From contig JAWMAR010000003.1 of assembly GCA_036785375.1 (NCBI GenBank), forward strand, positions 6,758,001 to 6,822,000: a DNA stretch of 64,000 nt, written 5' to 3'. This stretch comes from Leucoraja ocellata. Lineage: Eukaryota. Every line of letters starts with the position of its first letter. Position 1 is the first letter of the stretch. Shown here piece by piece: positions 54,567-58,848 of the stretch. The notes beneath the pieces are model-generated. The model was not told where the DNA came from. It saw only the letters and a list, made by a program, of their open reading frames with translations, and did no database searches. A program made the translations under genes and the position numbers.

Positions 54567-54692
54567 ACTGCTGTTCCTGCTTTTAGCACCAGATGATAAT
54601 GTAGAAGCCATTTTGGAAGCCTCCGTCTCCCCTTCCTCACCATAGCGCTATGTGTAAAGCCCATAGTGCTCTAGCCGGTAGCACCACATTCC

Positions 54693-56045
54693 CATATAAC
54701 ATATAACAATTACAGCACGGAAACAAGCCATCTCGGCCCTACAAGTCCGTACCGAACAACTTTTTTCCCTTAGTCCCACCTGCCTGCACTCATACCATAA
54801 CCCTCCATTCCCTTCTCATCCATATGCCTATCCAATTTATTTTTAAATGATACCAATGAACCTGCCTCCACCACTTCCACTGGAAGCTCATTCCACACCG
54901 CTACCACTCTCTGAGTAAAGAAGTTCCCCCTCATGTTACCCCTAAACTTCTGTCCCTTAATTCTGAAGTCATGTCCTCTTGTTTGAATCTTCCCTATTCT
55001 CAAAGGGAAAAGCTTGTCCACATCAACTCTGTCTATCCCTCTCATCATTTTAAAGATCTCTATCAAGTCCCCCTTAACCTTCTGCGCTCCAGAGAATAAA
55101 GACCTAACTTATTCAACCTATCTCTGTAACTTAGTTGTTGAAACCCAGGCAACATTCTAGCAAATCTCCTCTGTACTCTCTCTATTTTGTTGACATCCTT
55201 CCTATAATTGGGCGACCAAAATTGTACACCATACTCCAGATTTGGTCTCACCAATGCCTTGTACAATTTTAACATTACATCCCAACTTCTATACTCAATG
55301 CTCTGATTTATAAAGGCTAGCATACCAAAAGCTTTCTTTACCACCCTATCTATATGAGATTCCACCTTCAAGGAACTATGCACGGTTATTCCCAGATCCC
55401 TCTGTTCAACTGTATTCTTCAATTCCCTACCATTTACCATGTACGTCCTATTTTGATTTGTCCTGCCAAGGTGTAGCACCTCACATTTATCAGCATTAAA
55501 CTCCACCTGCCATCTTTCAGCCCATTTTTCCAAATGGCTTAAATCATTCTGTAGACTTTGGAAATCCTCTTCATTATCCACAACACCCCCTATCTTGGTA
55601 TCATCTGCATACTTACTAATCCAATTTACCACCCCTTCATCCAGATCATTGATGTACATGACAAACAACAAAGGACCCAACACAGATCCCTGAGGCACCC
55701 CACTAACCTGCCTCCAACCCGACAAACAGCCATCCACCATTACCCTCTGGCTTCTCCCAATCAGCCACTGTTGAATCCATCTTGCTATTCCTGCATTTAT
55801 ACCCAACAGTTGAACCTTCTTAACCAACCTTCCATGAGGAACCTTGTCAAAGGCCTTACCAAAGTCCATATAGACAACATCCACTGCTTTACCCTCGTCA
55901 ATTTCCCTAGTAACCTCTTCAAAAAATTCAAGAAGATTAGTCAAACATGACCTTCCAGGCACAAATCCATGTTGACTGTTGCTAATCAGACCCTGTTTAT
56001 CCAGATGCTTATATATATTATCTCTAAGTATCTTTTCCATTAATT
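54693..56045 (-). mobile_element. Young CR1 LINE, 5'-truncated
   Basis: 325-aa RT ORF (QHGFVPGRSCLTNL, YMDFGKAFDKVPH, GVPQGSVLGP, KYADDTK) with one frameshift before the C-terminus, then the 3'UTR. Confidence 0.95.
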
Positions 56046-56105
56046 TGGGTTAGGATTCCCATAGTGCAAGTGCGAACAGTGGTAGTTAACAAATCATTTT
56101 CGTCT

Positions 56106-56240
56106 TCTTCTTTTGTGTGGCGTGCACAGCCTAAAGTTGTTGGACAACTTGTTCTATTTGATCTTCCGTTTGTGCACGTCGAGTTGATTGCATTAGTCGA
56201 AACAGGGCGGACCACGTGAAGGTTGCAATCTTCCACCCCG
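56106..56240 (-). mobile_element. ~135-bp non-autonomous retroposon with HDV-like ribozyme head and (GAA)n tail
   Basis: Direct repeat ttttcgtct at 56097-56105 and 56241-56249. 3' end ...GCCACACAAAAGAAGAAG. No tRNA A/B boxes recognised. Confidence 0.8.
56186..56239 (-). ncRNA. Minimal HDV-like self-cleaving ribozyme (54 nt)
   Basis: Minus strand reads GGGGUGG-AA-GAUUGCA-ACC-UUCACGU-GGU-CCGCCCU-GU-UUCGA-CUAA-UGCAAUC. P1 is 7 bp with a G1.U wobble, P2 is 7 bp perfect, P3 is 3 bp, L3 fits UYCHCGY, P1.1 G is present, P4 is vestigial, and J4/2 CUAA carries the catalytic C at 56196. Confidence 0.85.
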
Positions 56241-56399
56241 TTTTCGTCTCAGAGGAATCAAGTGATAAACCACTCCAATCTTTCTGCAGTACTCATTAAA
56301 CTCGAGCTTTTTAAAAATGTAAAATTCCACAGCGAGTTTACTGCAACATGGCCGGTGCAGTGGTGACTCATTGTTATGATTATCCATGGTAGTTTTTTA

Positions 56400-56476
56400 A
56401 AAAAATCTGTATTTAACAACGCAAAATCGTATATCCGTACAAGATACGGGAAATCCGTACTACTTGGCAGCTATGC
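56400..56476. mobile_element. Possible hAT-like transposon terminus
   Basis: Reverse complement reads CATAGCTGCCAAG with subterminal TACGG/CCGTA repeats. Confidence 0.4.
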
Positions 56477-56544
56477 CCAGGTATTTAAAGCTGCTCACCC
56501 TATCCACAGTAGTCCCATTTATCCCCAGTGGTGTGTACGTCCTC

Positions 56545-56990
56545 GGTTCTTGTGCCCTTCTAGTCCACAATCAGCGCCTTAGTTTTAGTGACATACAAGA
56601 GGAGGCTGTTGTTCTGACACCAGAGTGCCAGGTCAGCCACCTCCTCCAGGTAGGCCTTTTCATCGCTATCGGAGATCAGGCCCACCGCCACTGTGTAATC
56701 AGCAAACTTGAAAATGGAGTTGGAGCTGAACCTGGCCACACAGTCAGGGGGGCTGAGGACGCAACCCTGGGGGATCCTGTGTTCAGGGTGAGGGGGTTGG
56801 AGCACCTGGGGCCTGGCAGTGAGAAAGTCCAGGACCTAGGCACATGGGGGAGTGTTCAGTCCCAGTTCCAGCAGCTTCTCAGCAATTCTGGTGGGGACTA
56901 TGGTGTTGAAAGCCGAACTGAAATTAATGAACAGCATCCTCATATAGCCCCCCCTTCTGGCTGTCAAGGTGAGAGAGAGTGGTGTGCAAA
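56545..56990 (-). mobile_element. Decayed Rex1-like RT fragment
   Basis: PQGCVLSP, SIFKFADYT, TKTKALIVD. Confidence 0.75.
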
Positions 56991-58848
56991 ACCTGGGGAT
57001 TGTGGATGATCAGCCATGATCACAGTGAATGGCAGTGCTGGCTCGAAGGGCCTACTCCTGCACCTATTGTCTATTGTTATCTCTAGAAATGTCTACAACA
57101 CCATACATAGTATAATCAGACAGAGAGTAGACCATACCAGATGAGGTGATGTGCCTTTCCTCCTCTCCTCGTGGTGAAAGTTCTTAGAATAAATACATTT
57201 ACTTGACCGAAGAATGGAGAAATGAATGATTATCATGTTCCACAGCAGTATGCTTGACAGGTGCAGTCAAATATAGAAAAATACATTCAGGTGACAACAA
57301 AGGAATACCTAAAAGAATAAGATTTCTGACAATATATGAAGAAATCTTGGGTACAGATATATATTTTCAAGGGGTTGCGAGATGACATTCAGGCAGAAAA
57401 TGCAGAATCATTTAATGTGGAATTCATTCGTTTTGTTTTATGGTTATTAATTTAATCCTTGCCCACAATTGGCTGTTTTTCTAGTTTTTGTCCATTTTAG
57501 TGAGTGGAGAAAGATGTGAATCCTCCATCTGACTCAGCCACACTTTTTCTTTGTCCGTATTCTTTGTGGCCAGTGCTCATAGTTCGCTGGGGCTATCAGA
57601 TCCTAATCGCTTCCATTTTACCTTCACTTGAAGTATCATTTCCTCATGTTTTTTTCTTCAATTACAAACTGTAGTAAAGGCATGACATTACCTCAAATAC
57701 ATCTAAAAAATCTTCAAAAATACAACCAGAAATAAAACGGCAATTCTTCAGTGGGTGTGGCAGCAAGTGCAAGACAACCAGCTAATGTTGGAGATCCACA
57801 CCCATTCATTAAAGAAATAGAGATAAGACAAGGGTTAAATTGTGCCGCAATAGTGAGGGGAGATTGAACAAAAGGAAAGTTTGTTATACGGTGGAAGAGA
57901 AATTAAAAGACCAGGTCATGGTAAAAGGTGAACGATAGAGGTAAATATTCTGGGAAAGATGTCATGCAATGTCATTTTCCATTTGGAGTGTGGAGTGAAT
58001 GCTAAAAATTTGCAATAAAAATGCCAGGTAGAATATCATAGGAAACCAAGTCAGGAGTAGACCATTTGGTCCTTCAAGCCTCTCCTCCCTTTCAAAGGGA
58101 ACATGCCTATTCATTTACTTCAGTACCATTTCTCTGGACTCACAACCAATAGATTAATATCTACATATTAAATGATCTATATCTTTAATATACTCATTCA
58201 CTGAGTCTTCGTAGCCTCTTGGTTTGAAAACTCCTAGTCTTTTATTATCCTTTGATTAAGGAAACGACTTTTCATCTCCGATGGATTTTAAGACTAACTC
58301 CTGGTTCCAGATATTCCAGCTGTCTCTGCATCTGCTCAATCAATAAGAACATCTCACAAACTTCCAAATTCAAAGAGTACAAACCTATGGAGATGCAAGA
58401 GACATCGGCTCGTAGATATTAGGTGGAACCAGATTGGCAGGGTGGGGGAAAGGCTGCAGTGAATGATGGGCAGATGAACCAGGCAGGGGAGTGTTGAGAC
58501 AGTTGACCTCAATACAGATGTATCCTCATTTTCTTCTTCGTTTTAGATCAGAATTATTTTAATTTCCCTTTAATGTCCTTATTTTGTAATGATTTCTTCA
58601 GTCTCAATCTTCAAAGGAGCATTTTTGCTACTTTTTTCATTCATATGTACCTGCGGAAGGTCTTACAATTTGTTTATATGATTCTTGGCTGCCTCATCTA
58701 GTTTCCGTGCGTGTGGTAATCCCTTGGTCCGCTTTTGCCGAATTCTGTATTTTTCCTTCAGGCTTACTGCAGTTTTAATAATAGTATTTTGTGTGACATC
58801 TTATGAAAGGGTTTCTGAAAGTCCAAGCTTATCTTCCAATCTGTAGCA

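Follow-up and report, generated by a model that had tools for sequence, protein, structure and literature searches.

What is the short retroposon at 56097..56249 of this 64,000-nt stretch of the Leucoraja ocellata genome (the whole stretch is called the window here), and is the fold at its 5′ end a working ribozyme? A preliminary description, made from the letters of the window, had taken it for a promoter-less, SINE-like family that cuts itself out of read-through transcripts with a minimal HDV-like ribozyme and borrows a LINE reverse transcriptase. Our analysis supports a related reading, to which we assign a probability of roughly 0.8: the element is a SIDE (short internally deleted element) derived from a Vingi-like LINE that has a single ORF and no RNase H, its head likely cleaves itself at its first nucleotide, G1, and its spread to new sites is likely the work of the LINE protein. 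Direct support exists for the family, its boundaries and duplications, the parent LINE, the ends common to both, a second deletion family, and ribozyme-like heads on relatives, each taken up below.

An HDV-like fold without P4

The element lies on the minus strand between two copies of a 9-bp target-site duplication that can be read directly from the sequence (5′ side 56241..56249, 3′ side 56097..56105). G1 (56239) stands one base from the duplication, as described earlier, the intervening C at 56240 being a single extra base that is likely untemplated. The earlier length of 135 bp holds if this C is counted; the element proper has 134 nt. At its 3′ end a short AAG repeat of two to three units runs into the duplication.

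Every helix and loop named in the preliminary description is present on the minus strand of 56186..56239, a 54-nt HDV-like fold with predicted cleavage 5′ of G1. P1 pairs GGGGUGG (56233..56239) with CCGCCCU (56210-56204) in 7 bp that include two wobbles, G1.U36 and U5.G32; P2 pairs GAUUGCA (56224..56230) with UGCAAUC (56192-56186) in seven Watson-Crick pairs, and J1/2 is AA in this copy. The 3-bp P3 (ACC/GGU) and the 7-nt L3 (UUCACGU, with U20, C22 and G25) occupy 56211..56223. Where P4 would stand (56197..56203) there is G37 at 56203, which forms a one-pair P1.1 with C22, followed by the six bases UUUCGA at 56202-56197. J4/2 is CUAA (56193..56196) and places the predicted catalytic C44 at 56196, a C present in 68 of 71 sampled copies. 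The HDV-like nested double pseudoknot of P1, P2, P3 and P1.1 can thus form, with a single pair, C22-G37, for P1.1. All core residues are in place (the G1 wobble, U20, G25, the catalytic C first in J4/2 and an A third), their roles being taken from established HDV knowledge and from the available parts of PMC10879173. The earlier reading of P4 as reduced to UUCGA stands insofar as the helix is absent; we infer, however, that in the remnant U38 may pair with A43 and so close a UUCG loop above the one-pair P1.1, in place of UUCGA after a U.U pair.

General RNA tools gave little sign of this fold, which raises the question of whether it is a chance match in an ordinary repeat. An Rfam scan of the window region returned sub-threshold matches only; the best one of HDV type, to the F. 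prausnitzii HDV model, scored 16 bits (E 9.1), where the gathering score is 44. ViennaRNA, which cannot represent pseudoknots, recovered P1 alone, without a stability signal (z -0.04); the 3′ half of the element folded into two stems, not significantly (z -1.47). Set against these scores, a fold descriptor, composed after sight of the sequence, matched once on both strands of the window and not at all in 7,679,656 shuffled bases (7.7 Mb), G1 coincides with the element boundary, related families keep the architecture with different letters, and the core matches published theta ribozymes among the rows of their table examined. A chance match is, on this evidence, barely credible, and we regard the head fold as confirmed as observed in sequence. 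For the window copy itself, ViennaRNA predicts that the upstream flank lengthens P1 into G37-U40; P1.1 would then be blocked, and this copy may be inactive in place.

A family of thousands whose copies mostly begin at G1

An exact pattern across the internal junction of the element, which does not touch the ribozyme, matched 6,863 times in its own genome (3.44 Gb), a count that includes assembly and segmental duplicates and misses diverged copies; a control pattern matched 0 times. A first BLAST search had yielded 1,389 candidates, 40 of them scored, and all 32 of 32 matches in 30 loci reached G1. We dropped these top copies as biased toward full length and replaced them with a junction-based sample: 90 of the first 100 matches listed, omitting 10 rows of one tandem cluster on C1, from which 10 duplicates were then removed to leave 80 independent copies. 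Of these, 71 start at G1-G4 and the other 9 are truncated or interrupted, so the 5′ ends of other copies do coincide with G1, as had been anticipated. Target duplications of 9-16 bp flank 61 of the 71 full-length copies. Together with the junction count, this bears out the view of a multicopy, non-autonomous retroposon.

The position at which the duplications end is sharply defined. Relative to G1 it is 0 in 28 copies, +1 in 14, -1 in 9, -2 in 5 and elsewhere in 5, so that 56 of 61 end between -2 and +1; the 14 that reach one base inside G1 are about what a chance G would produce. Between 1 and 6 extra bases precede G1 in 16 of the 61 copies with a duplication. Where the addition is a single base it is T in 7 of 9 cases, and additions of G only (3/16) show no cap-like excess. 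The base preceding G1 is T in 35 of 71 copies (p 2.5e-4 against an assumed 29%), a bias that would fit run-off at an uncapped end with an untemplated A added to the cDNA. Part of the stretch recurs in public sequencing runs of several organisms; loose ends fall at 56239 in 4 of 4 runs, with mixed flanks in the three runs that have several records.

Copies fall into subfamilies distinguished by J1/2, by the fifth pair of P1, either U.G or U-A, and by the base at position two of J4/2. The mean pairwise difference is 5.7% among 18 copies of the window's subfamily and 8.1% among 49 copies of the main one. The frequent variants fall at tolerated places (J1/2 position 8, U5.G versus U5-A, the second J4/2 base) and spare all helices, U20, G25 and C44, which are intact in the family. 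The sampled copies contain no two-sided changes, most changes being single-copy decay, so the P1/P2 covariation proposed as a check does not appear within the family; between families it does (13/17 pairs two-sided, see below).

Some copies lie in larger repeats. At C1:19.26-19.43 Mb (L021-L025), elements sit within a larger tandem unit with identical flanks and a spacing of about 2 kb. On the window's own contig, C3:6308965-6312117 (L002) is an inverted, 96.7% identical duplicate of window 54609-57745 with the element included, in which T replaces C before G1. Many loci occur in such inverted-duplicate-like pairs, which suggests haplotype duplication in the assembly. Within the window, about 50 bases downstream of the element, an open 328-aa reverse transcriptase fragment, presumably of CR1 type, lies at 55066-56049 on the minus strand.

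The element joins both ends of a Vingi-like LINE

To find a parent we used a tail-anchored pattern that excluded the usual upstream letters. Among the 100 listed of its 1,732 matches, one class read upstream as a LINE C-terminus, and stepwise upstream extension from this class led to copies headed by the same ribozyme. One of them, L152, has head, tail and an 11-bp duplication; the LINE sharing both ends that the preliminary description had envisaged therefore exists. Alignment to natural LINE copies (L330, L152) derives nt 1-79 of the element (56161..56239) from the LINE 5′ end, and 56106..56147 from its 3′ end, comprising the last codons, the stop codon (56133-56131), the 3′ UTR and the AAG tail. 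The 13 nt in between (56148..56160) align to neither LINE end, form a hairpin in RNA folding, and look like a short duplication with a fold-back arm. The short element is thus the LINE's first ~79 nt, 13 other bases and the last ~42 nt, with no ORF. As both its ends are those of a LINE of the same genome, it is a SIDE and not a SINE, which replaces the earlier notion of a SINE-like element with an independent head of its own; and as the head is the LINE's own first ~79 nt, the ribozyme was inherited from the LINE. A head-anchored negation pattern, tried as another route to the parent (208 matches, 30 read), returned only variants of the short element.

The same derivation bears on whether the element might be a SINE transcribed by Pol III from an internal promoter that has degenerated. 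Its size and copy number are SINE-like, and a stretch at nt 5-15 resembles an A box, with 3 mismatches of 11 to the box consensus. However, the best B-box matches (nt 51 and 77, one mismatch in a 9-mer) are at chance level, ARAGORN finds no tRNA, in keeping with the earlier statement that tRNA-type A and B boxes are not recognisable, and the head corresponds to the 5′ end of a LINE of ~3 kb. We consider a Pol III origin very improbable.

The parent LINE is about 3 kb long, and its ORF begins near nt 107, straight with an APE domain, followed by the reverse transcriptase and a CCHC-type C-terminus. Pfam detected no RNase H in seven parent LINE segments, and none is listed for any of 47 homologues. 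Parent copies align colinearly to a database protein of 1019 aa, with 52-86% identity depending on the segment; the intact 1019-aa relative (P0001), encoded on an ENA contig, reaches 71% identity to the parent reverse transcriptase, far above the 41-53% of the other 46 homologues. A compact single ORF with APE and reverse transcriptase and without RNase H is the Vingi architecture as described in the available part of PMC13708176, and we call the parent Vingi-like on this architecture rather than on a tree with named references. Of the two partners suggested earlier, a Vingi/Ingi-type LINE is upheld by the shared ends, and RTE is excluded by the partner found.

Every parent copy seen is broken, with a longest open frame of 347 aa. 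A pattern for the LINE 3′ end had 126 matches and the region near the LINE 5′ end 41 candidates. No young parent LINE with the young subfamily's tail was found, most of the 100 listed of the 126 LINE 3′ ends having the older tail; the 3′ ends seen for other Vingi-like families differ. Most parent copies are 5′-truncated, while most insertions of the short element, with 134 nt to copy, reach G1. In a sister short family (L416-L420), nt 1-96 of the LINE are followed almost at once by its last ~40 nt. This structure is present in 5 of 5 copies fetched, which represent four independent sites and of which 4 of 5 have a visible duplication.

Parent copies with 5′ inversions of a twin-priming-like kind are frequent: there are 13 distinct junction patterns among L091-L184 (L124, L120, L144, L151, L169, L178, L130, L159, L166, L177, L179, L182 and L183), plus L109, and several inverted pieces end at LINE nt 1-16. 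We rejected the idea that inverted heads beside LINE fragments are two-RNA insertions, as they are 5′ inversions of the LINE itself. At L157:1456-2169 (-) and in L178 the reading frame runs uninterrupted across the ribozyme and includes an AUG at nt 47-49, within J4/2-P2 and in frame, which may bear on where translation starts.

From these data we envisage the following cycle. A copy within a host read-through transcript would fold and cut 5′ of G1, and the LINE-derived 3′ end of the freed RNA would be bound in trans by the LINE protein. That protein would copy the RNA into a new site by target-primed reverse transcription, the reverse transcriptase presumably running off the uncapped G1 end with occasional untemplated additions.

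Related Vingi-like LINEs carry HDV-like heads

A protein search identified other Vingi-like families at 32-43% identity, and 30 further loci in the same genome represent six further families (L208, L220, L219, L230, L232 and L222/L231). In five of the six, the fold descriptor has a match shortly before the ORF, at a distance of 130-185 nt from the APE domain; in the sixth, family D, the fold was seen by eye and missed by the descriptor. Reverse-complement controls of the Vingi-like loci gave 0 matches. Among metagenome loci with a 5′ region, 3 of 14 match, all three of one family. The descriptor is therefore not exhaustive, having missed family D, decayed copies of the parent LINE and 11 of 14 metagenome loci. 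In family B, whose copies are 96-99% alike, the common sequence begins at G1.

Across seven heads, pairing holds in 115 of 119 helix cells, two-sided changes affect 13 of 17 pairs, and P1.1 is U-A instead of C-G in one family. These pairing counts are partly circular because the descriptor demands pairing, so the weight rests on the position of the matches and the clean controls. The relatives also differ in P4: a P4 region is present in all six and absent only in the window lineage, where 7 nt separate P1 from the catalytic C as against 26-46 nt in the six relatives. A search of viral contigs for Vingi-like proteins found nothing. Family D (L221, L222, L231) occurs as tandem partial repeats of ~1.8 kb on many small contigs.

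Ribozyme, promoter or both

The main competitor of a self-cleaving head is a head that serves mostly as an internal promoter for Pol II, with transcription beginning at G1; the HDV fold would then be vestigial or secondary since P4 was lost. We judge it unlikely, more plausible though it is than a Pol III origin or a chance fold. Capped RNA is expected, from work on L1, to leave an extra G at the 5′ junction, and G additions are few there. Furthermore, the helices, U20, G25 and C44 are intact and the frequent variants avoid them. A P1.1 of one pair without P4 speaks for the promoter, as does precedent: in the parts of the papers available, the Pr77 sequence of L1Tc is both promoter and ribozyme (PMC4035085, PMC8256844), and Kojima 2018 assumes Pol II transcription for bipartite elements (PMC5786205). 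The head could also combine both functions, as in L1Tc.

Decay at the catalytic position also bears on this choice. For the CpG containing the catalytic C, 989 matches have the variant that spares it and 412 the C-to-U variant, whereas a neighbouring CpG in the junction sample decays 10:9. The asymmetry counts against a pure promoter and, at the level of sequence, suggests that source copies needed the catalytic C; drift of one source copy or a sequence-context bias could explain the excess instead. In poly(A) raw reads of another organism the two variants are near parity (50 versus 37).

Transcript data point, if anywhere, toward the promoter. Three of the four public runs consist of contigs, which cannot show read starts, and the raw-read run comes from another organism; in its poly(A) reads, starts do not accumulate at G1, and 264 reads continue through G1 into the flank. 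Read-through without a pile-up is expected for old copies and fragmented libraries and gives no support to cleavage. We retain self-cleavage at G1 as the likelier function of the head.

Comparison with known ribozymes and elements

The lifestyle we propose is already known from R2 SIDEs and from NARTc and RIME, and bipartite Vingi derivatives are known too, as far as the available parts of these reports go. R2 SIDEs of Drosophila, with ribozymes of demonstrated cleavage activity (Eickbush and Eickbush 2012, PMC3414825), are likewise internally deleted, non-autonomous elements with an HDV-like head and a LINE 3′ end. They are specific to 28S rDNA, longer (R2Dwi_SIDE has 529 bp), of low copy number and equipped with full P1-P4 ribozymes, whereas the present element is dispersed, has 134 nt, thousands of copies and an APE-type parent, and lacks P4. 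NARTc and RIME, trypanosome derivatives of L1Tc/ingi, are also bipartite and Ingi-clade with an HDV-like head, but differ in a 77-nt head with P4, demonstrated promoter activity, a parent with RNase H and a protist host (PMC4035085). Non-autonomous derivatives of hedgehog Vingi-1_EE resemble the element as internal deletions of a Vingi LINE (PMC5786205). More broadly, the part of PMC6765202 available describes HDV-like ribozymes in use by some LINEs and SINEs throughout the animals. What appears new is the P4-less head with a one-pair P1.1, the size, the large animal genome and the high copy number.

The head also resembles theta ribozymes of gut phages, which likewise lack P4 and have 7-bp P1 and P2; in one subtype P3, L3, the UUUCGA loop and the CUAA junction are identical to ours, and the loop string occurs 323 times in 7,704 rows of the theta table (PMC10879173). 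The rows examined (part 1 of 60 and 30 found rows) have a two-pair P1.1, with GA before the loop, whereas the window head does not have that A. As the combination of one-pair P1.1 and no P4 is absent from those rows, this geometry may be slow. Theta ribozymes adjoin the 3′ ends of phage tRNAs, whereas no tRNA adjoins the window head (ARAGORN). An exact search with the one-pair core had 0 matches in viral and prokaryote contigs, and one with the two-pair core had three in viral contigs. P4-less HDV-like ribozymes were previously known from metagenomes and phages; the available part of PMC10879173 places nearly 99% in phages and names no match from human, mouse or protist genomes. The window head converges on the phage theta loop in a 3.4-Gb animal genome, at thousands of loci.

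Two practical consequences follow. The thousands of natural variants are a ready activity series for a P4-less fold with a one-pair P1.1, and the element marks out a very small set of candidate cis signals, ~80 + 40 nt, with which Vingi-type retrotransposition might work. The latter is of interest for gene-insertion platforms in which the donor RNAs lie between Vingi-1 UTRs, as described in the part of PMC13708176 available. In the literature searched, which lacks some key early papers on HDV-like ribozymes and on Vingi as well as repeat libraries and patents, we found neither the short family nor any account of ribozymes in Vingi elements or of a CPEB3 ribozyme derived from one; Bendixsen 2021 (PMC8233481) made no mention of the terms sought.

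A possible link to the CPEB3 ribozyme

The mammalian CPEB3 ribozyme (Rfam RF00622) shares with the window head an identical L3 and an identical GU after P1, which implies a one-pair P1.1 there as well. It differs in having P4 and a single intronic locus, and the window head does not match RF00622. Two sister heads do. The head of family F (L232:580-664, +) scores 56.2 bits and that of a metagenome element (L369:3106-3189, +) 55.6 bits on the CPEB3 model, whose gathering score is 35, and both precede a Vingi-like ORF. These are 2 of 16 distinct loci scanned, all Vingi-like, a third scoring 24.7. The human genome contains a Vingi fossil, according to the available part of PMC5753468.

Judged by sequence resemblance, the CPEB3 ribozyme may possibly be of retrotransposon origin; convergence within a constrained fold could produce the same likeness. 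We put forward only tentatively, as a conjunction that is rather doubtful as a whole, that an active P4-less head, one core base shorter than the phage subtype, arose independently in an animal LINE and was spread by a 134-nt parasite, that HDV-like heads are general to Vingi-like LINEs, and that CPEB3 is the retained 5′ end of such an element. The match of the sister heads to the CPEB3 model offers a testable origin for the mammalian ribozyme.
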